DNA of 64,000 nucleotides from a bacterium (lineage in GTDB: Bacteria > Patescibacteriota > Minisyncoccia > Phycocordibacterales > CAIZIN01): positions 165 through 64,164 of the forward strand of contig JANNXY010000042.1 in the NCBI GenBank assembly GCA_031409775.1, in the 5' to 3' direction. Each line of letters starts with the position of its first letter. The first letter of the stretch is position 1. Below the pieces are notes generated by a model. It had not been told where the DNA came from and searched no databases. It saw nothing but the letters and a program-made list of their open reading frames with translations. This document shows positions 306 through 49,714 of the stretch, one piece after another. A program made the translations under genes and the position numbers.

Positions 306-3140
306 TTAATTGTTAGAAATTATATCATTATTTTCTGGTTTTGGCTTGTTTTGTCTGATTATATAGGCAAACATTAGCCCAAACAGTATTACAACGAGTC
401 CCAACCCTCCCCACACGATCCATGGATATTTCTCTGTTATACGGCTCTCGTCTGGATCACATTTGTCCCCCACTTTGTCTAGATCGATATCACTCTGGTT
501 CTGGTTCGGCTCGTTTACACAGTTGTCTGTGCTGTTCACTACTCCATCACGATCGAAGTCATCGCAGGCATCCCCACGGCCGTTCTGATCTACATCACTC
601 TGATCAGTGTTGGCGATACGAACACAGTTATCCTGCATATCAGGGATGTTGTCCTTGTCAGTATCTGCAGGTTTATAGTCTGAATTCTGAACTATTTTTC
701 CTATAGATGCTTTCACCACGCCCTTGTCATCTCTCAGATTTGGCATCTCGCCGGTATTCAATGCCACAAATGATTCTGGGTCGCTATAAATGCGGTAACC
801 CACTCCTGGTTGAGCTAGAAACCGAACTGCAGAGTATGACTTTACTGTATCGAGATTTATTATCGTTAACTCATTGATTCGCAAGGGCTGTGAATATTCC
901 ATCTGAATAGTCCAGTTTGATGAATTGGTTTCTGGAAATTGTATAGTGTTCGAATTAGGTCGGATTCTGGAGAGGATTACTTTCTCATTTCCATTTGTAT
1001 CAAATGCCCTTACGGTAATAGAGGTAGGCAAAGCTACGTACTGATCAAAAGAAAAAACAATCGAATTGCTTCGAATAGATTTAGGGTACCGGAGAGAAAG
1101 AGAAACGGAACCCTGTGAACCATCTGCGGGCAAATCAAATGTTCGAGAGGTTTCGTAGTCATCGTCAGAAAGTTCATCAGAATTACTTGGGGTCATTTTC
1201 GTACTCGAATCTCCAACAATCAAACTCGGAATAAATTTATTTGATCCTGGTACGAAAACTCCAACTAGAGAGCGCGAATTATTATGTATAGGAACTTCTA
1301 CAACAGTCGGGACTTTAATCTCTGGGATGATTACACTTCCCACATTTCTAAATGATCCTACTTGAGCTGCCTGAGCTATGGTCATAGCACTTACTACATT
1401 CCCACCCAGTAAAGGAATTACCAAAAGTAAAACTAGCGCCGCAGGCTTACTTTTCTTTATAAAAGCAGTACTGATAAAGAGGATCCCAATAACGATAAAT
1501 GTCACAATGCGCGGTGCGAGATCCATATGCCACACATCTACGAATACAAGCCTAGCGACCACCAGTATAAGTATTGTTGCGCCATAGTGCTTGAAATTGA
1601 TCACATTACTCATAAGCCCATAAACATATGCAGCCAGTCCGATAATACTGTACACCAGCAATGATCCAAATGTCGCGGTACTTTCTAGAGTATTCCCTGC
1701 ATGGAAGCACAGCCACACAAGTGACAACAGATACACGGAACCTACTACATTGAGCGCAGTGTGGCCGTAGAGATGTGCAATACCTTTGTCTGCATCTTCT
1801 TTGTGAGACGAATAATAAAATACTCCGAGGAACATAAATGTAAGTCCCACCGCGAGAATGACAGAGAAATCCTCGTGCAATATATATGTGTTCCATTTAT
1901 TTGATAGAAAGCTTGGCAATGCCATGAGAGCCGGCACCGCCATAAGCCACGCCATCGCGTAGCCTGCAGAAATTTTCTTGGTAACCAAATAGCTTGCAAT
2001 AGATATTGCAGCCGCTTCGAATGTAAATGCGAGCACAAGCGATGGCCCATCGAGCTCTATGGACGTCGCTACCGCGAGGAATACCACTGATACGAGAGAA
2101 TATACGTAGAACAATTTCTCTTTGCCGGTCTTTACATATACGAAGAAGCTCCCTGCTGCAAATACCACCATCCACACTGCGAGCACCATACTCTGCAACT
2201 CCTCACGTACTATGGTCATGGTAGTAAGCATGATGAGTATTGAATTTATAATTGCCACAAATACATCAGACGGACTCGCTCCAGACTTAGACCGAACAAG
2301 TCCTATAATGCTCACTGCGAAATACAGTACAGATAGCACAAAAATAATGCCCAGTATAAAAAGATTATCTCGAGCTTCGAATCTGTCAAAGACATTCCAC
2401 ATACTATAGAATAATATTCCGAGAACAGAAACAGCATTTACCACCCTCCAATTCTTCATAGCTGCGACCCAGACAGACCCCACAGTGATCACGAGCAGAT
2501 AGACATAGAGCAGATCGATGTCCACGCGACTATCAGTGAGTATCGGCGCGATGAAGCCTATGAGTACAGAATAAATCGCAAGCCTTCTCATATCGAACAT
2601 CACCGCCACAAAGCCCAGGTATACTGCGACGATAAATGGTATTGATAGAGCTACTGCAGGAGTAAAGAATCCATAGACCACCTGCGATGCGTAGCTAGTT
2701 ATGACCACGAGAGCCGAACCAAGTACGAGGAGCATTGTTCCCTGCACGCTGTTTGATTGCATACGCAAGGTTCCCCACACAGCGATGATCGATCCCACGA
2801 TGAGCCCGAGCGCCACGCGAGCATGGGGACCTATCCAATTGTGCACGAATGCATAACTTATAAACCAGCCGAATCCAACGAGGATCATTAGTACACCGAC
2901 CTTGAGCAGCCAGTTCTCGCTAAACCATTTAAAGAATTTGTCCAGTGGATCCGGTCCGGATGGCGGAGGCATCACGTACGCGGGTTGTGCAGGAGCGGAA
3001 ACTGGATTATAAGCAACTACGGGTGCCACCCTCTCAACTGACTTGTGCCCGATCTGTGCTTCGAGGTTCGACACGCGGCTAGATAGACTAACTAGCTTGA
3101 TAATCACCACCACGAGCGCTACAAATAGTATAAATGACAT
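306..3140 (-). CDS. polytopic membrane protein (DUF2339-like, >20 predicted TM helices) with C-terminal thrombospondin type-3-like Ca-binding repeats and a terminal TM anchor
   Basis: 944 aa ORF. The N-terminal ~600 aa is dominated by hydrophobic helices. The C-terminal region contains repeated DxDxDGxxDxxDNC-type motifs (DTDKDNIPDMQDNC; DQSDVDQNGRGDACDDFDRDGVVNSTDNC; DIDLDKVGDKCD). A final hydrophobic segment WIVWGGLGLVVILFGLMFAYII follows. Confidence 0.6.
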   Translation of the reverse strand: MSFILFVALVVVIIKLVSLSSRVSNLEAQIGHKSVERVAPVVAYNPVSAPAQPAYVMPPPSGPDPLDKFFKWFSENWLLKVGVLMILVGFGWFISYAFVHNWIGPHARVALGLIVGSIIAVWGTLRMQSNSVQGTMLLVLGSALVVITSYASQVVYGFFTPAVALSIPFIVAVYLGFVAVMFDMRRLAIYSVLIGFIAPILTDSRVDIDLLYVYLLVITVGSVWVAAMKNWRVVNAVSVLGILFYSMWNVFDRFEARDNLFILGIIFVLSVLYFAVSIIGLVRSKSGASPSDVFVAIINSILIMLTTMTIVREELQSMVLAVWMVVFAAGSFFVYVKTGKEKLFYVYSLVSVVFLAVATSIELDGPSLVLAFTFEAAAISIASYLVTKKISAGYAMAWLMAVPALMALPSFLSNKWNTYILHEDFSVILAVGLTFMFLGVFYYSSHKEDADKGIAHLYGHTALNVVGSVYLLSLVWLCFHAGNTLESTATFGSLLVYSIIGLAAYVYGLMSNVINFKHYGATILILVVARLVFVDVWHMDLAPRIVTFIVIGILFISTAFIKKSKPAALVLLLVIPLLGGNVVSAMTIAQAAQVGSFRNVGSVIIPEIKVPTVVEVPIHNNSRSLVGVFVPGSNKFIPSLIVGDSSTKMTPSNSDELSDDDYETSRTFDLPADGSQGSVSLSLRYPKSIRSNSIVFSFDQYVALPTSITVRAFDTNGNEKVILSRIRPNSNTIQFPETNSSNWTIQMEYSQPLRINELTIINLDTVKSYSAVRFLAQPGVGYRIYSDPESFVALNTGEMPNLRDDKGVVKASIGKIVQNSDYKPADTDKDNIPDMQDNCVRIANTDQSDVDQNGRGDACDDFDRDGVVNSTDNCVNEPNQNQSDIDLDKVGDKCDPDESRITEKYPWIVWGGLGLVVILFGLMFAYIIRQNKPKPENNDIISNN

Positions 3141-40914: not shown

Positions 40915-42795
40915 ATGTATTTAATCCGAGTAATACCAATATCTAGAGGAATTGACAAGGACTCGCTTACATATTTCAGCCTCAGAGACTGCCCTGTGGG
41001 ACACATCGCAAGCATCCAGATAAGGAGTAGAATGGCCCCAGCTATAGTGTATTCAAGCGAGAAAGTGGAGATGGAGAAGAGCTCTATCAAGCAACTCCCG
41101 TATGAGTTGAAAAAGATTTCCGATGCTGGGAGCGGTAGTCAGCCATTTTTTAACCAAGCATTTATGAAGGCTGTAGAAAATATCGCAACACATCATGCAT
41201 CATCTGCAGGTGCGGTGATCGAAGCTCTCACACCATCTAACGTACTCTCTGAGCATGTATCAATCATATCAAAGGTGGCAGAAATTCCAGTCGACAATCA
41301 CCCCACAGAGAACCTGATGTTCCAAGCCGACGACGAGACTCGACTTGCACATTACAAAAGCATAATAAGAGAAGAATTCGCCAAGAAAAATTCTGTATTT
41401 ATACTTGTACCGACAGTTCACGAAGCCAACTTTATCAAAGAAGGTTTAGAAAAAGGTATCGAATCATATACCTATGTAGCTCACGGTGGTCTGTCCAAGA
41501 AAGCTTCTGTACATCTATGGAACGAAGTGATAAGCAATTCACACCCTGTATTGGTTATAGGAACTGCGATATTTCTATCTATACCGCGAAGATGGAATAC
41601 GATCATAGTAGAGCGCGAGAGTTCTAGGCATTACAAAATGTCACAGAGACCGTTCCTAGATGTTCGACGTGTCGCAGAGAAGCTGGCCCTGCATTCGAAA
41701 GCGACATGTATATTTGCAGACGTGATGCTACGCGCAGAAACTCTCTGTAGGTACGAAGATGGCGAGATACACGAAGTGAGTAAACCCCAATGGAGGTCTA
41801 TGTCGAATTCCAAGATAAACCTAGTAGACCTCCGTAGTCTCAAATTCTCTATACTAAGTAATGAGCTGAGGCAACTGATTTCTGACAACAAATCCAACGG
41901 TCGGAGGCTGTTTATCTATGTATCACGTAGGGGTAATTCTCCACAGATTATATGTCGGGACTGTGGCAACACGGTTATGTGTAACAGGTGTAGTGCACCC
42001 GTAGTGCTGCATACATCAGCTGCCAAAAGTGATCGATACTTCCTCTGCCATAGTTGTGGCGAGCGACGTACCGCAGATGAGTCATGCACTCACTGCGAGA
42101 GCTGGCACCTACAGGGCTACGGTGTGGGCATAGAATCTGCCCAAGAACTCCTGAGTAAAGAATTTCCAAATATCAAAATATTTAGAATCGACTCCGACAC
42201 TACACCCACAGACAAGAAAGCGACAGCTGTAATAGATGAATTCTATACCAACCCCGGTAGCATACTACTAGGCACTGACCGTGCGCTGTACTACCTCAAG
42301 GAACCGATCGAGAATGTCGCTATAGCATCACTCGACTCTCTGTTCTCGCTCCCCGACTTCCGAATCCAAGAAAAGATATTCCACACCATTCTACAGCTAC
42401 GATCGCTCTCGTCACATACATTCATCGCACAGACGCGCTACACCGACAATCCGTTGTGGAACTATGCGCTCAAAGGAAACCTCATCGACTTCTACCGCTC
42501 AGAAAAGGACTCTCGCAAGCAGTTCCACTATCCACCGTACAAGACACTTATAAAGATCACCTACACAGGTACACCAGCATTAGTCCGCAAGGAAATGTCG
42601 AACCTCAAATCAATATTGGAACCGTATGTTGTAAACATCTTCCCTGCGTTTATCGAGAACAAGAAAGGTAAATTTGTAATGCATGGACTACTCCGCCTCG
42701 ACAAGCGTGACTGGCCGAACCTGGACCTCCATGACAAACTCCGCTCCCTCCCGCCAAGCTTTGCCGTAAATGTCGATCCCGAGAATTTGCTTTAG
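40915..42795 (+). CDS. priA: primosomal protein N' (PriA) homolog with degenerate helicase ATPase motifs
   Basis: PriA-like 3'-DNA-binding N-terminus and the characteristic CxxC-rich Zn-binding insert (CRDCGNTVMCNRCSAPVV...CHSCGERRTADESCTHCES) are present. No GxGKT Walker A was found. The DEEH box position reads IIVERESSRHYK. Confidence 0.65.
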   Translation: MYLIRVIPISRGIDKDSLTYFSLRDCPVGHIASIQIRSRMAPAIVYSSEKVEMEKSSIKQLPYELKKISDAGSGSQPFFNQAFMKAVENIATHHASSAGAVIEALTPSNVLSEHVSIISKVAEIPVDNHPTENLMFQADDETRLAHYKSIIREEFAKKNSVFILVPTVHEANFIKEGLEKGIESYTYVAHGGLSKKASVHLWNEVISNSHPVLVIGTAIFLSIPRRWNTIIVERESSRHYKMSQRPFLDVRRVAEKLALHSKATCIFADVMLRAETLCRYEDGEIHEVSKPQWRSMSNSKINLVDLRSLKFSILSNELRQLISDNKSNGRRLFIYVSRRGNSPQIICRDCGNTVMCNRCSAPVVLHTSAAKSDRYFLCHSCGERRTADESCTHCESWHLQGYGVGIESAQELLSKEFPNIKIFRIDSDTTPTDKKATAVIDEFYTNPGSILLGTDRALYYLKEPIENVAIASLDSLFSLPDFRIQEKIFHTILQLRSLSSHTFIAQTRYTDNPLWNYALKGNLIDFYRSEKDSRKQFHYPPYKTLIKITYTGTPALVRKEMSNLKSILEPYVVNIFPAFIENKKGKFVMHGLLRLDKRDWPNLDLHDKLRSLPPSFAVNVDPENLL

Positions 42796-43166
42796 TTTGC
42801 ACCCAGATAATCTTTGATTCTTTGTTTACTCTCATTTTCAGATTCACCTTTGAAGTAAATTTCAATAAATTCAACGGTAGTTGTCGCAGGATAAAAGGCA
42901 TAGATGATGCGAATACCACTTTTTGCCCCACGACCCTTGAGCGACTTACAGGCAAACTTCTTTAGTTTGCAAATTTTTATTTTATCTGTACAAAAGTTGG
43001 GAATCAAGAAAATGGAATTAATATATTCCAAACCTTCATGGTAAGGCTCTATTGTTGCAATCTTGGCGAACTCTAAATCATCTGTAAGAGACCTAAACTT
43101 CTTTTGCAGAAACTTTAAATCCCTTTGGAATTCACTTGTTTCTCTATAAATAATCTTGATCGTCAT
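42792..43166 (-). CDS. RelE/ParE/HigB-superfamily toxin-like protein
   Basis: 124 aa; C-terminal KSGIRIIYAFYP...IEIYFKGESE resembles the RelE/HigB core (GxRxIY...I). Overlaps the upstream HTH-Panacea gene by 23 nt. Confidence 0.5.
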   Translation of the reverse strand: MTIKIIYRETSEFQRDLKFLQKKFRSLTDDLEFAKIATIEPYHEGLEYINSIFLIPNFCTDKIKICKLKKFACKSLKGRGAKSGIRIIYAFYPATTTVEFIEIYFKGESENESKQRIKDYLGAN

Positions 43167-43962
43167 AATTTCTTACAGAAGTTTTCTCAGTCCGATAAAA
43201 AACACCTTCATATTTAATTGGCTGATTTTCTTTGGTAACGATCCATGGGATATCCTCATGAGAGTAGTTGCTCAATTCTGTGGCATTTTTATTGCTTAAT
43301 CTCGCCAATACTTCATCGATGTGCTTTATTTCATTTGCACTGAGTACAGAGAGGTTAGCCTGCCTCTTTGGTAGGTATTTGGTCTGCCCATGTTGGAAAT
43401 AATTACTTTTTACGGTTTCTAGCTCGCCTTTGGACTCCATTGATTCTATGACCTTTTTGAACTCCACTGGAGTCGGGCCAAAATGATTCTTGATATATGT
43501 CGCACCAATGAGCTGTTCTTCGAACTTTTCGTAATAATCAAAGTCGATAAAGTAGAGAAGTTTGTACAGAACCGTCATCCCGACATTTGGCTTGCCACCA
43601 ACCCTTTCGAGTATATAAAGCAATACCTCTTTGAACTTCTTGATGTTTTTCTGCGGGACATCTATGCGCATTCCTATCGTTTCTTTTATTTCCTTTTCGT
43701 CCATTATTCTTATATCCAATTCGAAATTTTTTTTTCCAGAAATGAGGTTTTCAATTTTAATTTCGAAAATCTGTGCGATCTTTTGAGCTTGGGAAATAGT
43801 CAGCTCTTTCTTGCCTTTCTCCACCTCAATGTAGCTTGGGCGTGAAATACCAATCTTTTCAGCAATATAAGCCTGTGACAAATTTGCCTCGTTACGTAAT
43901 TCTTGTAGAAATTTATGTTTAATCATATCCAATATTATATACTCGCCATATTGATATGTCAA
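43144..43962 (-). CDS. XRE-family HTH + Panacea (DUF4065) domain antitoxin-like protein
   Basis: N-terminal HTH (LSQAYIAEKIGISRPSYIEVEKGKKELTISQAQKIAQIF). The central GMTVLYKLLYFIDFDYYEKFEEQLIGATYIKNHFGPTPVEF matches the DUF4065/Panacea KLxKLLYF...GxP...GPV pattern. Confidence 0.55.
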   Translation of the reverse strand: MTYQYGEYIILDMIKHKFLQELRNEANLSQAYIAEKIGISRPSYIEVEKGKKELTISQAQKIAQIFEIKIENLISGKKNFELDIRIMDEKEIKETIGMRIDVPQKNIKKFKEVLLYILERVGGKPNVGMTVLYKLLYFIDFDYYEKFEEQLIGATYIKNHFGPTPVEFKKVIESMESKGELETVKSNYFQHGQTKYLPKRQANLSVLSANEIKHIDEVLARLSNKNATELSNYSHEDIPWIVTKENQPIKYEGVFYRTEKTSVRNYDDQDYL

Positions 43963-44092
43963 TAATAGTTACAATAAAATTGTTAAAATAACTAACATAA
44001 TCTTGATTTTTAGCTCCCCGTACCCTATTACACAATCAAATATCTGTCAAATTCAGCTTTATTTTATTCCTCATTTATTGTATAAATACCCC

Positions 44093-44596
44093 ATGTCAAA
44101 GATAATTCAAAACGGTGATAAGGTGCTCCGCATGGAAGCAGAGTCAGTGGATCCCAAAATGTTTGGGAGCAAGAAGCTCCTCGCTATACTCAAGGATATG
44201 GCCAAGACTGCGAATGCCGAGCAGGACGCAGTGGCTATTGCTGCTCCACAGATCGGAGTGAGCCTGCGCATATTTGTGATTACTGACCGAGTTCGCGAGA
44301 TAATCAAGTCCCCCGACCTCCCACTAATTTATATAAATCCAACAATTATTAAGCAAAGCAAGGACAAGAAAGCAATGGAAGAAGGCTGCCTCTCGGTGCG
44401 CTGGCTCTATGGCAAAGTCCGCAGGTCCTCCCGCGTGACGATCGAAGCATTCGACGAGAGTGGCAACAAATTCACCCGTGGTGCCTCTGGCCTCCTCGCC
44501 CAGATATTCCAGCACGAGACCGATCACCTCGACGGCATCCTATTTATCGATACCGCCAAGAATTTAAGGGAGATGCTGCCAGAGAATCAGGATTAG
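44093..44596 (+). CDS. def: peptide deformylase
   Basis: EGCLS and QHETDHLDG (HExxH) motifs. Start reassigned to MSKIIQNGDKV; the N-terminal extension from 44003 is rejected. Confidence 0.9.
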   Translation: MSKIIQNGDKVLRMEAESVDPKMFGSKKLLAILKDMAKTANAEQDAVAIAAPQIGVSLRIFVITDRVREIIKSPDLPLIYINPTIIKQSKDKKAMEEGCLSVRWLYGKVRRSSRVTIEAFDESGNKFTRGASGLLAQIFQHETDHLDGILFIDTAKNLREMLPENQD

Positions 44597-44759: not shown

Positions 44760-45467
44760 ATGAAAAAATCAAAAACTTTTAAATTATTATCTCGCGCCGA
44801 GCGTGATGAAATAGAAATACTACTAGAAAAAGAATATTCTGGGAGATCAATTGCCAAAGCACTCTGTCGTTCTCCGAATACTATCTCGTATGAGATTAGG
44901 AAAAACGGTGGCAAGAAAAAGTACAAGGCTCAAAATGCTCACCAATATGCACAGACCAGAAGAAAAGATACCAAAACACAGTGGAAAAAGATTGAACACA
45001 ATAGCACTCTCAAAACCTTCATCATTGAGAAATTGAAATTACATTGGAATTCCGATGAAATCGCTGGATACATGAGGCGAAAAAAGCTAAAGTTTTATGC
45101 CTCAAAAACAGCTATCTATGAGTGGCTTAGGAGTGAGTACGGACAACAATATTGCAAGCATCTCTACTCTGGTCGATACAGGGTCAAACGCCACAAGACG
45201 AGCAAGAAGAAACGGGAGATGATTCCTAATCGAGTGAGCATTGAGAAGCGTCCAAAGGCCATTCTGAAGCGAGGTAGGTTTGGTCACTGTGAAGCTGATA
45301 CTGTAGTCTCAGCCAAAGATGGCTCTGGAGGAGTCTCAGTGTTTCAAGAAAGAAAATCTCGCTTGTATCAGGCAAAAAAGGCGCTAGGTATGAGTGCCAA
45401 AGAACATGTGATTAATCAAGAACCCCGCGGCAGAGCCGTCCCCTCGCAAAGCCTCGGCGGGGTATGA
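44760..45467 (+). pseudogene. IS30-family transposase remnant (N-terminal HTH and start of DDE domain only), interrupted by IS200-type insertion
   Basis: N-terminal HTH region and GHCEADTV (IS30 GHWEGDxI equivalent) followed by ERKSRLY. Homology ends at ~45430, where the IS200 right end begins. No C-terminal DDE/E part is found downstream. Confidence 0.65.
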
Positions 45468-45995
45468 ATTGATGCATGGTCTAGTGCCAAAGGGTGAGCT
45501 GTACTGATTCGACCGTCTTTCCCTGGTTTTCTATGTATTTCTTTACTATATCCCAGTTTCCACGCTCGCCTACTGTAGCGAGATAGTAACCATCACTCCA
45601 GAACTCTCCTCCCCACAGATCTTTACGCAGTTCAGGAAATCGCCTGAATAGTTGTTTGGCTGTAATGCTTTTGAACATCGTCACTACTTCGATACCTGAA
45701 TACTTCGGGTGATAAGAGCAGAGTATGTGAATATGGTTAATATCGCATCCTAGGTTTTCAAAATCGATTTCGTATCTTTCACCGATTTCCTTGGCGATTT
45801 CTAATACGGCGAGCTCCACTGGTTTGTCTAACAGAGCTTTGCGGTATTTGACGGGAAAGACTATGTGATAGTGGGTATTGTATGCGCAGTGATTGCTTTT
45901 CTTGACCATGCATCTAGTATATCTGAAAACCAAGGGTTTTCAGACTTTCCTTAGCAGAAACCCCGCCCTAGAAGGGACGGGGAATGGGGGAGATT
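45425..45995 (-). mobile_element. IS200-type element (tnpA only) with subterminal GC-rich hairpins
   Basis: Left-end hairpin CCCCGCCCTAGAAGGGACGGGG at ~45948-45975 and an imperfect palindrome at ~45436-45470 flank tnpA. The element is inserted into the IS30 transposase gene. Boundaries are approximate. Confidence 0.5.
45481..45933 (-). CDS. tnpA: IS200/IS605-family Y1 (HUH) transposase TnpA
   Basis: 150 aa; HUH motif HIHIL (INHIHILCSY) and the conserved catalytic Tyr region (WSDGYYLATVG) typical of IS200 TnpA. Confidence 0.85.
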   Translation of the reverse strand: MVFRYTRCMVKKSNHCAYNTHYHIVFPVKYRKALLDKPVELAVLEIAKEIGERYEIDFENLGCDINHIHILCSYHPKYSGIEVVTMFKSITAKQLFRRFPELRKDLWGGEFWSDGYYLATVGERGNWDIVKKYIENQGKTVESVQLTLWH

Positions 45996-46013: not shown

Positions 46014-46685
46014 TTATAATTGTAATTTTTTTGAGTCTGAAATACTCTCTGATAATTCATTAAATGTATACTGGTAGATTTTCCAATCAGAATAATCAAT
46101 TATTTCTTCTGGTTCATCGAATGTAAGCCAGTCGTCTTTAATATTCCCTGAACAATGCTTAAGTTTATTTATATATCTGCCAACAGCGCTGTCTCTATTC
46201 TCTTCATTTTTCTTATAATCTAGACCTATTTTTCCTAAAGTTATTTTTAAGTCAATTAAAGTTTTAGAGGGGATAAATAATTCTGCCTTTCCATTATTAA
46301 TTATATGGTCAGTTATCTCTCGATACCTTAACGCCTCCTCTTTTTGAGATGTTTCTTCATATTTTACACCCAATTCCACTAATTTACTGCAATATAATTT
46401 ATATATCTTCCATTGATTGAAAGACAAATCATTCGTTACCTCATCGTAGGTTTTTTGGATGCGTTGCGAGTATACTGCCACAAGAAAACAAATTGATACC
46501 AAAATAAATCCCTCAGAGGGTGATAACTCATCCTGCATAATTATGAAACCAATAAATATAATCAAAAAAGGATGTTTAACGATAAATTTTTTAATAGAAT
46601 ATAATACTTTACGCATGTTACTTATTATTAAGATTTTGATTACAAACGGATAAAGCAATACTAAGTGCCATAAAAAAACCTCCAC
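46014..46685 (-). CDS. hypothetical membrane-anchored protein (223 aa) in very AT-rich DNA
   Basis: Two N-terminal TM helices then a charged Lys/Glu-rich cytoplasmic domain. Local GC is far below the rest of the window; no homology recognised. Confidence 0.4.
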   Translation of the reverse strand: MEVFLWHLVLLYPFVIKILIISNMRKVLYSIKKFIVKHPFLIIFIGFIIMQDELSPSEGFILVSICFLVAVYSQRIQKTYDEVTNDLSFNQWKIYKLYCSKLVELGVKYEETSQKEEALRYREITDHIINNGKAELFIPSKTLIDLKITLGKIGLDYKKNEENRDSAVGRYINKLKHCSGNIKDDWLTFDEPEEIIDYSDWKIYQYTFNELSESISDSKKLQL

Positions 46686-46803
46686 CTATTACTGCTGGCA
46701 ATGAATCTAATCCCATCTCGCTTGAACTCAATACTCCAAGTAATACTGCAAAGAAACCTATTATTAGTGATGCTAAACCTACAAGATTAGTTAATGTTTT
46801 CAT
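46618..46803 (-). CDS. small hydrophobic protein (61 aa)
   Basis: Two predicted TM helices (LVGLASLIIGFFAVLLGVL; GGGFFMALSIALSV); immediately upstream of, and overlapping, the 223-aa gene. Confidence 0.3.
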   Translation of the reverse strand: MKTLTNLVGLASLIIGFFAVLLGVLSSSEMGLDSLPAVIGGGFFMALSIALSVCNQNLNNK

Positions 46804-46916
46804 ATATATTAAGCATACTCTTATAATGTTGATAATTCAACTACTATTATGTGATTAAATCTATAGAGATTACTGTTGATAAATATACATATTTTAATGA
46901 GTTTAAGCATAGGTGA

Positions 46917-47330
46917 GTGACTGATAACTGTCAAAAACCCAACTTTCTAGCTGGTTCCAACTTTCACTTACAATGTCCACACACGAAACCGCTTCGGCGG
47001 TTTTTATTGTGTGTGGGCCCAAGCAAAGCCTGGGTTGGCTTTGCGTCAGGACTCGAACGGCGGAGCGGGACCCAGATTAGCAAATCTGGGAGCGAGCCGG
47101 TGCCCAGACAAATCATTCGCGACGGCGAAAGATTTAGTCGAGGGAGAGATTCCTGTAGGGTCCACTGAACAGAAAAAACACCCACCGCTGGGTGTTTTCT
47201 CGTGTACGTTGAACGCGGAGCCATATTTTCAAGTACGGAAAATGGCGAGCCGGGGTCGAGGAATTCGTCAGCTGACGAGCTAGCGAATATCCGTGACCAC
47301 AAAATATTTGCAACAATTTCTGTATAAAGT
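46917..47330. ncRNA. GC-rich, highly structured non-coding region with two intrinsic-terminator-like hairpins (unclassified structured RNA candidate)
   Basis: Overlapping open frames on both strands and no credible protein. Nested hairpin CACACAC[AACCGC-TTCG-GCGGTT]TTTTT...GTGTGTG at 46977-47016. Further stems GCAAAGCC/GGCTTTGC and CCCAGAT/ATCTGGG. Hairpin AACACCCA-CCGC-TGGGTGTT (47177-47196) has an A6/T6 run on its minus-strand side. Perfect palindrome CGTCAGCTGACG at ~47258. Confidence 0.35.
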
Positions 47331-47348
47331 TACTATGAAGTTAGAAAT

Positions 47349-47546
47349 ATGCCCGAAGATCCTACTGATCCCAAGAAAATTAGCAATGCATCACTTAGAG
47401 TAAAGATGAGGGGCTGGAGCCCAGAGAAACGCGAAACGTACTTCCGCTTGGTAGCTGTGGTTCAAGTGCACTCCTTTGCGATTTCAGGAGTTAAGCTCGA
47501 CAAGGAGAAAACGCTGCAGAAAATCCGCCGAACATCTCAGAACTGA
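47349..47546 (+). CDS. hypothetical small basic protein (65 aa)
   Basis: Short ORF with no motifs, followed by a hairpin with a T-run at ~47530-47560. Confidence 0.2.
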   Translation: MPEDPTDPKKISNASLRVKMRGWSPEKRETYFRLVAVVQVHSFAISGVKLDKEKTLQKIRRTSQN

Positions 47547-47560
47547 GATCGGCTTTTTAT

Positions 47561-48442
47561 TTACGACAACCTACCCTTCTTCCTGAACTCTGCTCTGCTG
47601 TGCTCGATAGCCAGCTTCCAGAACTCGACAAGTGATGAACCGACACTATGCAACGACTCGAGTAGCGGACTACCCTGGTCCACTACAGGATGCGCGTGTA
47701 TGTCCTGCAGGTATACATGCTTGGGTGTAATGATAAAGTCGAACTGGGCTACATGGCCGAGTCCTAGGTCACTATGTAGGAGCCTCGCAGCGTCTTCTAT
47801 GTATTTCTTCTGAACACTATCGAGCTTGTGAACGATGTGGTACTTGTCCCCGACCTTCTCTACTACTGGAGTGACGTAGATATCTCTTCCACGGAAGCCA
47901 CGCAGGGTGCAGACATGCATAGTTCTGCCCTGTATGTGACGCTCGATATATGCATGACCGTGCTGTGCCATAGTGTCGCGTAGAGAACTAGCAAATACAT
48001 CGAAATCATACGCAAGGTTACCATTGGTTTTACTTGTCTTTATATTTACTGGTAGAAATACCTGCGAGTGTAGCTTGCTGAGCTCGCCCTGACTCAGATC
48101 ATGTCCACGTATATAGAATGTGTGTGGGGTGAGGATGTTGTGATCTTTGGCATGCTTCTTCCAGAGTACTTTGTGACCAGGGGCATTCCACATACTACGC
48201 TCTGAATACGGACTAACGAGTGGCATCTTGTGCCCCAGATGCGTAGGAACAGTATCGGTGAGCACTACCGCTACATCCCCATGATGAACAAAGAAATCAT
48301 CTGCAACTGTACTGCCCTGGAACAGATGTCCGCCCAGCGGGTTCTCTATCACATAAGTGACCTTGAAACCAGCGAGAGCGCTGATCACTTCTTGATCTCT
48401 CGGGCTACCGTCTCCTACTACTATAACTCTTTTAATTTCCAT
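47561..48442 (-). CDS. ATP-grasp family protein, D-alanine--D-alanine ligase-like
   Basis: C-terminal AQFDFIITPKHVYLQDIHAHPVV resembles the Ddl R.DF...yllEvNt.PG region. N-terminal VIVVGDGSPRDQEVISA resembles the Ddl GGxSxEHEVS region. The match is divergent, so this is a family-level call only. Confidence 0.45.
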   Translation of the reverse strand: MEIKRVIVVGDGSPRDQEVISALAGFKVTYVIENPLGGHLFQGSTVADDFFVHHGDVAVVLTDTVPTHLGHKMPLVSPYSERSMWNAPGHKVLWKKHAKDHNILTPHTFYIRGHDLSQGELSKLHSQVFLPVNIKTSKTNGNLAYDFDVFASSLRDTMAQHGHAYIERHIQGRTMHVCTLRGFRGRDIYVTPVVEKVGDKYHIVHKLDSVQKKYIEDAARLLHSDLGLGHVAQFDFIITPKHVYLQDIHAHPVVDQGSPLLESLHSVGSSLVEFWKLAIEHSRAEFRKKGRLS

Positions 48443-48451
48443 GTAGGATTA

Positions 48452-49714
48452 TTATAACAGGAATCTTTTTGCACGTCTCTGTCTATGGAATGTTATCGCG
48501 TATCTGTGACACTCTGCATTGAGCTTGATGATGTCTGTGTTGTATTTATCTACCACATCCGTATCACCAATTATCGCACGAGCTTTGTGTCTGTCATCTT
48601 TAACAACACTTAACACTTTTATTTTTTCAGCTAAACCCTTTTCTGATATAATTTTATCTGCGGCGTTTTTCTGGGCATCTCCGCCATCTACTACGAGTAT
48701 ATCTGGTAGTCTCCACTCTGGATGGTTGAGCCTCCGTGAGAGAGTTTCTGTGAGTGCACCGGTGTCGTTGCTCGATGTGTAGTTTCTTATGATAAATTTC
48801 CTATACTCTGCACGTACGAATTCCCCATCCTGCATCACCACCATGACCCCCACCATATCTGTACCAGACATATGTGCGATGTCGTATGCTTCTAATCGAA
48901 GACTGGGCTCTAGGTTAGAGCTATTAGCTTTCAGTGGAGACTCATACTTTATGAGGGATACATCGCGTATATGCTCGAGTGCAAATATCTGGTTACGAAT
49001 AGTTCTAGCTAGTTCGAACTCTTCTGCTTTCGCGGCAGATTTCATCTCTGTATTCAGACTTGCTAGCAACTTCTTTTTCTTGCCTTGGAAAAACAGTGAT
49101 ATGTTACGAATAGTTCGAGAATATTCTTTCTTTGTAATTACACCTGCACATACACCAGGGCATTTGCCTATCATGTAGTTGAAGCATGGACGTTTTGCGA
49201 GTACACCTGGACATTTCTCGTCTCGATAAGGAAAGATCCTTCGGATAATCTTCAGGGCTTCCTTGATAGACCGGGACTCTGGGTATGGACCGAAGCTAGC
49301 TTTTAGCTGATAGCTTACAGCTTCTAGATCTTTCTTCCTTACGAGCTTTATCACTGGGAAATCTTCGTCTGTTATCACTACACAGTAGAAGCTCTTGTCA
49401 TCTTTCTCTTTAGTATTGAATTCTGGTTTGAATTTGCGGATCAGATCCGCCTCGAGTATGAGCGCCTCGAGTACAGAGTCGGTGGGTTGATGATCTATTG
49501 ACTTGGCTTCGAGCATCATGTTCACGAGTAGCTGACCGCGAGTGGTTATGAGGTCTTTACCAAAGTAGCTCCTCACTCTATCACGCAGGCTTGTCGCCTT
49601 GCCAATGTATAGAATTTTCTTGTTGCGTCCAAGGAAAAAGTACACCCCCGGAGTATCAGGGAGTTTTTTGAGCTTATTTATTAACGCTTTGCTGTGTGTT
49701 TGACTATTCATCAA
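48452..49714 (-). CDS. uvrC: excinuclease ABC subunit C, short form (GIY-YIG + UVR + RNase-H-like endonuclease domains; no C-terminal HhH2)
   Basis: GIY-YIG motif GVYFFLGRNKKILYIGKATSLRDRVRSYF. A UVR-like segment around ELARTIRNQIFALEHI. C-terminal endonuclease region YDIAHMSG; 420 aa. Confidence 0.8.
   Translation of the reverse strand: MMNSQTHSKALINKLKKLPDTPGVYFFLGRNKKILYIGKATSLRDRVRSYFGKDLITTRGQLLVNMMLEAKSIDHQPTDSVLEALILEADLIRKFKPEFNTKEKDDKSFYCVVITDEDFPVIKLVRKKDLEAVSYQLKASFGPYPESRSIKEALKIIRRIFPYRDEKCPGVLAKRPCFNYMIGKCPGVCAGVITKKEYSRTIRNISLFFQGKKKKLLASLNTEMKSAAKAEEFELARTIRNQIFALEHIRDVSLIKYESPLKANSSNLEPSLRLEAYDIAHMSGTDMVGVMVVMQDGEFVRAEYRKFIIRNYTSSNDTGALTETLSRRLNHPEWRLPDILVVDGGDAQKNAADKIISEKGLAEKIKVLSVVKDDRHKARAIIGDTDVVDKYNTDIIKLNAECHRYAITFHRQRRAKRFLL

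Follow-up and report, generated by a model that had tools for sequence, protein, structure and literature searches.

What is the GC-rich, densely structured block at positions 46917–47330 of the 64,000-nucleotide (nt) stretch of contig JANNXY010000042.1, from a patescibacterial genome assembly? The whole stretch is here called the window. A first-pass annotation, made from the letters alone, found hairpins and no plausible protein in the block, and suggested a structured RNA gene that would be the integration target of a genomic island, or alternatively an island-borne regulatory RNA. The block holds two structured modules, here called X and Y, of a conserved, covarying, non-coding family that folds on the sense strand and is linked to the 3′ flank of tRNA-Ala(UGC) in Paceibacteria. 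Exact matches to the tRNA show that X is made of two copies of its 3′ end, one inverted and one direct. X and Y constitute a new family of tRNA-derived structured elements, absent from Rfam 15.

Composition and folding set the block apart. The GC fraction of 46900–47299 is 0.51–0.545, against 0.26–0.32 in the flank immediately to the left. Compared with 100 shuffled sequences, the 441 nt of 46900–47340 reach a minimum free energy of −168.6 kcal/mol on the plus strand (z = −6.7) and z = −5.8 on the minus strand; no shuffle was as low on either strand, showing structure far beyond chance. With 120-nt sliding windows, z lies between −2.5 and −4.4 for most of those starting in 46920–47240, 47120–47239 on the plus strand being one without significance, and none starting outside that range shows significant excess structure. 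None of the three open reading frames (ORFs) inside the block has a Pfam match. The elevated GC content, the lack of a plausible protein, and the nested hairpin, further stems and palindrome are all as the first-pass annotation described, at the places it gave. Its limits for the block hold in part: 46975–47306 on the plus strand is the portion kept in other genomes, while 46917–46974 is not conserved in homologues and looks like island DNA or promoter DNA of a minus-strand ORF of 61 amino acids (aa).

The homologues were reached through the tRNA end. Between the block and the loci of close relatives, the only significant similarity is an identity of 19 nt (z = 9.3), in which window 47148–47166, GATTCCTGTAGGGTCCACT, equals a gene end cut by the contig end in locus L005. 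Scanning the JGI metagenomes with the 17-mer tRNA end gave 36 loci, which group into canonical tRNA-Ala(UGC) and phage tRNA-Phe ends, chance matches, and X-type stretches. Seven stretches in six loci (L019, L023, L036, L041 twice, L045, L052) have the non-tRNA upstream context of the window, ...GGTGCCCAGAC-hairpin-AGTCGAGGGAGA, with compensating hairpin arms. The covariance model R1 was built from nine such units, including the window's own, and the 147 bits that it gives to X at 47015–47164 (plus strand, 150 nt) are therefore high by construction. R1 finds a single X copy within the window, and further, partly degenerate units in L019 (2589–2720 and 2966–3163) and L023 (L023b). Altogether there are 11 further full-length X units in nine other distinct loci, 131–151 nt long and 56–71% identical to the window unit; those from the 17-mer scan have 148–151 nt, and two later units of type b have 131–132 nt. 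An 11th homologous locus, L075/L076, was scored by R1 only and left out of the 12-unit alignment. The loci with X other than the window number 11 in all, each distinct, and come from metagenomic Paceibacteria (Parcubacteria).

The pairing of these 12 units is conserved beyond chance. Among them 92.2% of the alignment cells are paired, against 72.5% in shuffles (none of 500 reaches the observed value), and 28 of the 42 pairs show double changes, where 17.3 are expected. Sliding the partner column lowers the pairing to 37–49%. The covariation among homologous regions for which the first-pass annotation had called is thus strong.

The units also share their position. In L023, L036 and L045, an intact tRNA-Ala(UGC) on the strand of X precedes it by 28–47 nt. 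To avoid the bias that the 17-mer brings, contigs were also fetched through homologues of D-Ala-D-Ala ligase (Ddl), with the Ddl of L023 as query. All four loci so picked in which post-tRNA DNA is visible carry X after tRNA-Ala(UGC), with a terminator hairpin of 28–35 nt between them; R1 scores them at 94 bits (L066/67), 80 bits (L071/72), 73 bits (L069/70, a metagenome-assembled genome, MAG, of Candidatus Zambryskibacteria) and 51 bits (L075/76). The gene order uvrA-uvrC-ddl-tRNA-Ala(UGC) recurs in L063, L064, L066, L069, L071, L074 and L075. The proposal of a structured RNA gene stands in so far as the block is a conserved, covarying structured element and not the remnant of a protein gene; its transcript is a putative one.

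Module X begins with an arm of 20 nt that is interrupted by a hairpin, hp1. The first part of the arm, GGGCCCAA at 47015–47022, complements the acceptor 3′ strand of tRNA-Ala and pairs with 47157–47163 (helix P1, with G3.U70). Hairpin hp1 at 47023–47044, GCAAAGCC-UGGGUU-GGCUUUGC (stem GCAAAGCC/GGCTTTGC, 47023–47030/47037–47044), has compensatory changes in nine of nine pairs and 98% of its cells paired. The arm resumes at 47045–47058 as GUCAGGACUCGAAC, of which CAGGA pairs with UCCUG at 47151–47155 (P2), and which includes CAGGACUCGAAC, the exact reverse complement of the tRNA-Ala T-arm GUUCGAGUCCUG. The first 8 nt of X (GGACCCUA; in the window GGGCCCAA) joined to CAGGACUCGAAC are the exact reverse complement of GUUCGAGUCCUG-UAGGGUCC, that is, of the T-loop, the T-stem 3′ strand and the acceptor 3′ strand of tRNA-Ala. 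This inverted copy explains a T-loop-like string that the first-pass annotation saw on the minus strand without a pairing stem: the string, GTTCGAGTCC, does exist, it complements a conserved motif of the plus strand, GGACUCGAAC, and it represents an inverted copy of the tRNA-Ala T-arm within X.

The arm is followed by two hairpins, hp2 and hp3, joined by conserved junctions. Hairpin hp2 (47059–47100) is long, with two internal loops, a stem CCCAGATT/AATCTGGG at 47071–47078/47083–47090 and the apical loop UUAGCAAA; its AGCA/AGUA loop recurs among X units, and helices 4–7 all have compensatory changes. At 47101–47146, helix P3 (CCC-A-GAC ... GUC-GA-GGG) encloses hp3, AAAUCAUUCG-CGACGG-CGAAAGAUUU. 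Like hp1 and hp2, P3 covaries, L036 having CCU/AGG for CCC/GGG, and the hp3 stems change in L019, L052 and L041 yet remain paired. The module closes with GAUUCCUGUAGGGUCCA at 47148–47164, which reproduces the end of tRNA-Ala from T-loop position 57 through the discriminator A73. The same sequence ends the canonical tRNA-Ala(UGC) of L024, L027, L031, L039, L043, L044 and L049 and the truncated gene of L005. The distal boundary of X is thus a direct repeat that matches the tRNA 3′ end at 17 of 17 nt, as in a remnant of an attachment (att) site.

Two pairings are open to the arm. With the 3′ end of X, the arm can form a coaxial helix of 13 bp (8 bp of P1 and 5 bp of P2) that mimics a tRNA top half, acceptor and T-stem; U stands at −1 and A at the discriminator position. 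Alternatively, the arm can pair with the 3′ half of the preceding tRNA across the spacer hairpin, and all unit boundaries are long palindromes running from tRNA 3′ end through trailer, terminator and leader to X arm. The arm tracks the local tRNA: in L069, tRNA UAAGGUCC pairs with arm GGGCCUUA, and in L075, tRNA UCGGGUCC pairs with arm GGACCCGA.

The spacers are terminators. Spacer 1 (46975–47018, plus strand) is a palindromic intrinsic-terminator hairpin with the outer stem CCACACAC/GUGUGUGG (CCACACAC/GTGTGTGG at 46977–46984/47009–47016); it encloses AAACCGC-TTCG-GCGGTTT at 46986–47003 (as RNA AAACCGC-UUCG-GCGGUUU) and has a U-run, the hairpin 46985–47004 being followed by UUUUUAUU on the plus strand. 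Its right arm extends into the first bases of X, and the same architecture is present at every unit boundary of the homologues. Spacer 2 (47165–47209, plus strand) is the hairpin AAAACACCCA-CCGC-UGGGUGUUUU at 47169–47205, with the stem GAAAAAACACCCA/TGGGTGTTTTCTC at 47172–47184/47189–47201 and a conserved top CA-CYRC-UG. The top is conserved with covarying stems in L019, L045 and L024, and L052 has a different loop top; this type of hairpin follows X in L019 and L045 and directly follows tRNA-Ala in L024. As the first-pass annotation held, the second hairpin can act as a minus-strand terminator, since 47172–47201 gives U6 on that strand; it gives UUUUCU on the plus strand and can terminate in both directions. 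The two hairpins are not, however, the ends of one RNA but spacers between the units of a modular array, and terminators describe these spacers, not the modules.

Module Y (47210–47306, plus strand, about 95 nt) consists of GAACGCGGAGCC, hairpin hpA at 47221–47245, CGAGCC, hairpin hpB and a tail ACAAAAUA. The opening segment GCGGAGCC precedes hpA. In hpB, GGUCG at 47254–47258 pairs with UGACC at 47294–47298 and encloses the palindrome CGTCAGCTGACG (TCGTCAG/CTGACGA, 47265–47278). Y is conserved in three further distinct homologues, L019, L052 and L024 (identical in L039). In the alignment A4 of spacer 2 and Y, 21 of 42 pairs have compensatory changes, and one G.U pair in hpB is invariant. Y resembles the hp2-hp3 core of X, with a common GGAGC...GCGAG frame and AGCA and CGACGG loops. 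L024 has tRNA, spacer 2 and Y without X, and L045 has tRNA and X without Y, indicating that the modules come and go. The tRNA-sense strand folds more stably in 12 of 12 X units and four of four Y units (mean −7.5 kcal/mol). The strand that folds is the plus strand and not the minus strand.

No known RNA family accounts for the block. Rfam 15 at gathering thresholds finds no family there, and in the whole window only a SAM riboswitch elsewhere. That riboswitch (RF00162, 5789–5888, minus strand) scores 44.5 bits, barely over the gathering score of 44.4, and is the sole Rfam family in the 64 kb. A permissive Rfam search of 46700–47700 (E ≤ 10) gives only chance-level matches, and on seven homologous loci Rfam gives tRNAs and chance-level matches, with no family fitting X or Y. 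ARAGORN finds no tRNA or transfer-messenger RNA (tmRNA) gene in the window, and noise at lowered thresholds; neither X nor Y has a cloverleaf (D, anticodon and T arms) detectable by ARAGORN or the tRNA model RF00005. The first-pass annotation, which could fit no canonical tRNA and recognized no tmRNA, RNase P or signal recognition particle (SRP) RNA, was right: Rfam and ARAGORN are silent on these in the block, the former also on 6S RNA, and no tmRNA, RNase P, SRP or 6S RNA appears in the homologues. For RNase P, SRP and 6S RNA, comparison by hand showed only short resemblances.

A tmRNA was suggested by the resemblance of GGACUCGAAC to tmRNA GGAUUCGAC and by the G3.U70 helix GGGCCC/GGGUCC. 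It was dropped, because both T-loop and tag are lacking, about eight of 12 X units have A at position 3, and the ARAGORN and Rfam tmRNA models are silent. Reading frames that start with the hp2-loop GCA, or downstream of UAGUC, end differently or never in the window, L019, L045 and L052, and the 150 nt of X leave no room for tmRNA pseudoknots. A small T-like hairpin, AGGGA-GAGA-UUCCU, was likewise abandoned, since L036 compensates P3 instead; as P3 covaries, X has no such hairpin.

Mobile-element RNAs do not fit either. For an ωRNA or reRNA of the IS200/IS605 type, no TnpB or IscB and no HEARO or IS605-orfB Rfam match was found; the only gene of this type near the block is tnpA (Y1_Tnp), 1.1 kb off on the other strand. 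Like miniature inverted-repeat transposable elements (MITEs) and repetitive extragenic palindromic (REP) elements, X and Y are small, have terminal inverted repeats and a palindrome foot containing GTAG, fold stably when transcribed, and in the window lie 1 kb from an IS200-type Y1 transposase gene. Unlike them, they are not dispersed, occurring at one site per genome region and always at tRNA-Ala; they lack target-site duplications, and their low inter-copy identity comes with compensatory changes. By blastn, the phage and plasmid collections contain nothing real for the block, and three scans of IMG/VR viral contigs gave only phage tRNA-Phe genes and chance matches. The contigs of L022, L026, L034, L038, L046 and L054 and IMG/VR L008–L018 are phage tRNA arrays of 17–23 genes, whose tRNA-Phe(GAA) shares its last 17 nt with the Paceibacteria tRNA-Ala. 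Full-text searches of the literature found no description of such an element.

In the window the tRNA itself is missing. GTCCA at 46974–46978 (plus strand), with AT-rich island DNA directly to its left, is read as the last bases of an upstream tRNA-Ala or of a preceding unit, because homologues have ...CCTGTAGGGTCCA ahead of the same kind of spacer hairpin. To judge by its sequence, the tRNA-Ala gene that relatives have here is cut off at the foot of the terminator palindrome. A decayed tRNA just upstream of the block was considered and rejected, the alignment being no better than with shuffles. A split tRNA was rejected as well: every position on both strands of the window, joined to the 3′ fragment, gave no ARAGORN match, and the positive control worked. 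Both this gene and the promoter belonging to it have been lost where the locus meets the AT-rich island, so the local X copy may be an orphan.

On the other side the block adjoins conserved genes. The minus-strand UvrC (48452–49714) has its best relatives, at 55–68% identity, in Patescibacteria/Paceibacterota MAGs. Between it and the block, a minus-strand ORF of 293 aa (47561–48442) is a diverged Ddl, with no Pfam match and an NCBIfam E-value of 8e-5; the L005 protein in the corresponding place matches it at 33% identity (E 5e-38). L001, an independent assembly of the same genome, is 100% identical to the window. The DNA left of the block holds AT-rich ORFans, an IS200-type tnpA, an IS30 fragment, def and priA. 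The block is core DNA that borders on an insertion or rearrangement. It is therefore not island-borne, as had been considered, but belongs to the core uvrA-uvrC-ddl-tRNA-Ala neighbourhood. As for the suggested integration target, the block marks the site of the relatives' tRNA, but it is not itself the target gene, as tRNA-Ala(UGC) is missing here.

What, then, do X and Y do? In the likeliest reading, to which we give about an even chance, the block is what is left of a tRNA-Ala(UGC) locus of the kind that, in this patescibacterial clade, has one or more accessory structured modules following the tRNA, and X and Y are new tRNA-derived structured RNAs, made with or just after tRNA-Ala by read-through and released by tRNA-processing enzymes. 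Transcription would pass the leaky hairpin terminator behind tRNA-Ala. Through the acceptor/T-stem mimic, RNase P would cut at G1, and 3′ trimming would stop at the discriminator. X and Y would then persist as putative stable small RNAs, whose conserved loops (AGCA, GACG) and junctions may bind a partner. As long as the precursor is uncut, the X arm may instead pair, over the terminator, with the 3′ half of the tRNA itself.

In favour of this proposal are the fold, the covariation of X and Y, the fixed place behind tRNA-Ala in a conserved gene order, the preference for the tRNA-sense strand, the tracking of the local tRNA by the arm and the lack of a coding signal. Several observations weigh against it. 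P1 and P2 are almost invariant, with a single compensatory change, in P1. In L066 and L075 the 3′ end of X itself shows decay, with about 10 of 13 pairs, whereas the arm still matches the tRNA at 12–13 of 13, so the terminal helix may not be the selected pairing; pairing of arm and tRNA, or common descent, is kept at least as well as P1. Only about a quarter of the X units have G3.U70, which means that charging with alanine is not conserved. A strong terminator that looks bidirectional stands ahead of every unit, with no room for a promoter. The G.U and A.C cells of X are about equal, 14 against 12. The distribution is patchy: L005, the closest relative with a visible tRNA, and L063 and L064 have neither X nor Y.

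[quoted passage not shown] As single-stranded DNA (ssDNA), the inverted arm together with the 3′-end copy would fold into a duplex copy of the target. Such accretion has precedents, since integrase-less elements (cis-mobilizable elements, CIMEs, and integrative mobilizable elements, IMEs) and island arrays accrete in tandem at tRNA and tmRNA genes (PMC5704250, PMC3146451), and folded single-stranded recombination sites are known from the CTX phage attP(+) and the integron attC (PMC3442271, PMC3089051, PMC4792948). Like CIMEs and IMEs, X and Y sit at a tRNA 3′ end, each unit ends in a direct repeat of it, the module being bounded by repeats of 13–17 nt, and head-to-tail arrays occur (in L041, with a period of 197 nt and identical ends, and in L019 and L023). 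Presence varies among genomes: L024 has tRNA-Y, L045 has tRNA-X, and the window, L019 and L052 have X-Y. Unit length is constant, and the arm fits the current tRNA 3′ end perfectly, the decay in L066 and L075 being then that of the displaced copy. Like attP(+) and attC, X has two inverted target copies around a spacer that can fold into a duplex target copy, with structure conserved over sequence, a kind of variation also typical of folded-DNA recombination sites. In place of dif or attI, the target here would be a tRNA gene; any involvement of ssDNA or of Xer/IntI would be hypothetical, and X has extra conserved hairpins.

Against an integrating element, the units of about 150–200 nt, not kilobases, contain no ORF, leaving no element genes between the repeats. 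No integrase or transposase adjoins the arrays whose neighbours were scanned, and the flanking ORFs have no recombinase domain. The IMG/VR viral contigs hold no copy, and the 64-kb window holds only one. The units occupy the same syntenic tRNA-Ala beside ddl across Ddl divergence to about 55%, which looks like vertical inheritance with the locus. They have covarying hairpins and are only 56–71% identical across genomes, and an att site needs no conserved loops or junctions. Finally, the T-loop part of the repeat differs within one locus, GAGU in the tRNA and GAUU in X.

The tandem X units of L041 (127–276 and 323–473) share an identical spacer, 5′ arm, hp3 and 3′ end, and differ strongly from the 3′ side of hp1 through hp2 (about positions 22–92), suggesting recombination or diversification of the hairpin. 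Upstream of the array of L019, at 655–2460 (plus strand), lies a protein of 601 aa with no Pfam match and several repeats of about 60 aa (…NWP…GW(I/V)GWSELVGKEN…).

The behaviour of the arm raises another reading, quite unlikely in our view, in which X belongs to a new class of 'anti-tRNA' RNA. Its arm, maintained as the complement of the final 20 nt of the local tRNA-Ala precursor, would exchange strands between the tRNA 3′ half and the tRNA-like 3′ end of X, so that the cell or a selfish element senses or controls tRNA-Ala maturation; or the arm would target nucleic acids in which the end of tRNA-Ala is found, among them attP sites of integrating elements. The covariation with the tRNA in L069 and L075 could also serve a cis-acting 3′ element of the tRNA-Ala transcript, ranked lower still. 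Here arm and terminator would form a hairpin of about 40 bp in the read-through RNA and control termination, RNase III cleavage or tRNA-Ala maturation, the 3′ end of X being the competing strand in a switch. The palindrome from tRNA 3′ end to X arm is nearly perfect at every boundary, and the complementarity runs into the genomic trailer, not CCA, so that the partner must be the precursor in cis. However, this leaves the conserved hp2 and hp3 loops and junctions, module Y and the tandem arrays unexplained; tRNA-Ala genes of relatives work without X, and the X of the window is intact though its tRNA partner is gone.

That the block is a functionless relic, from a decaying duplication of tRNA-Ala and terminator or from leftover att fragments, plus ordinary terminators between convergent genes, is highly improbable: the tRNA gene is missing in the window, some units are clearly degenerate and the spacers look like ordinary intrinsic terminators, but 28 of 42 pairs are compensated, the length is fixed at 148–151 nt in most full-length units, the 56–71% identities exclude an alignment of very recent copies, and loop and junction motifs are invariant, while decay does not preserve helices.

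If X and Y are released RNAs, as we favour, they would join other RNAs that borrow from tRNA. Mimics of the tRNA top half are known in the tRNA-like domain of tmRNA, the tRNA-like module of the bacterial Y-RNA YrlA, and 3′ elements of the mascRNA type. In MALAT1, mascRNA is such a tRNA-like 3′ element (PMC8457004). Like these mimics, X would have an acceptor-like terminal helix with discriminator A on a T-stem-like helix, 13 bp in all; its end sequences are those of the local tRNA-Ala, it has a D-arm-like hairpin with a GG-containing loop after two unpaired A's, and it has U at −1, the preference of RNase P. Unlike tRNA and the top-half mimics, it has no T-loop, anticodon arm or cloverleaf, and neither the tRNA nor the tmRNA models detect it. 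In the place of the T-loop it has about 90 nt (hp2 and hp3), and its 5′ strand, instead of being a tRNA 5′ half, repeats the 3′ strand and T-loop in inverted form. Unlike tmRNA, X has no tag frame, and G3.U70 is not conserved. Small RNAs (sRNAs) also arise from tRNA 3′ external transcribed spacers (ETS), such as 3′ETS-leuZ of E. coli. Like these, X and Y are non-coding, lie directly behind a tRNA gene and would probably be released by the tRNA-processing machinery; unlike these, they are much larger, highly structured, located after a terminator and of tRNA-derived sequence.

The neighbourhood of the block shows further features. In its non-conserved part (46906–46965), the direct repeat CCAACTTTC occurs twice, at 46939 and 46957, and a promoter-like TTGACA-17-TATGCT on the minus strand (46934–46906) lies upstream of the membrane ORF of 61 aa (46618–46803). 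To the right, the ORF of 65 aa at 47349–47546 (plus strand) is an ORFan without a real homologue among 1.84 billion representatives; its residues 1–47 match weakly to repeated stretches in proteins of 600–3400 aa, and it is followed by a hairpin and U-run at 47534–47560. A role as partner gene was rejected, because it is an ORFan unrelated to the methyltransferase at that position in L005. The Ddl of the window has no relative above 31% identity among 5.8 billion proteins, while the adjoining UvrC has relatives at 68%. To the left, the IS200-type Y1 transposase gene occupies 45481–45933 (minus strand); the independent Logan assembly ends inside it, suggesting a genomic repeat. An ORF of 235 aa (44760–45467, plus strand), with HTH_38 as its only domain, is probably the IS30-type fragment. 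An AT-rich toxin-antitoxin-like pair (124 and 272 aa, 42792–43962, minus strand) lies between priA (40915–42795) and def (44003–44596), the toxin ORF overlapping the priA stop by 4 nt.

Among the closest relatives, GC-rich, visibly structured gaps of 200–650 nt also directly follow uvrC in L003 (11237–11521), L005 (7234–7573) and L007 (7381–8028). Homology of the block to this DNA was tried and rejected, none existing beyond the 19-nt tRNA end. The gaps have no Rfam or ARAGORN match and are dissimilar to one another and to the block. Those of L003 and L005 contain a sigma-70-like promoter (TTGCAA-17-TAGTAT and CTTGAC-17-TATATT), a C-rich stretch (CCUUCCCCC and CCCUCCCC) and a terminator.

The finding goes beyond a cluster of terminators, and the window holds what appears to be an orphaned copy at the border of inserted DNA. 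Annotators should be warned that X units carry tRNA 3′ ends and so, at the borders of islands, may be taken wrongly for att sites or pieces of tRNA. Patescibacteria have tiny genomes with little non-coding DNA, and a compensated element of 150 nt kept behind tRNA-Ala in many lineages is probably doing something. Its design is unusual, with inverted and direct copies of the tRNA 3′ end placed around two conserved hairpins and co-evolving with the tRNA. X and Y are a candidate for a new family of non-coding RNA in Rfam, and may represent a new coupling of an RNA to tRNA processing or to integration at tRNA genes.

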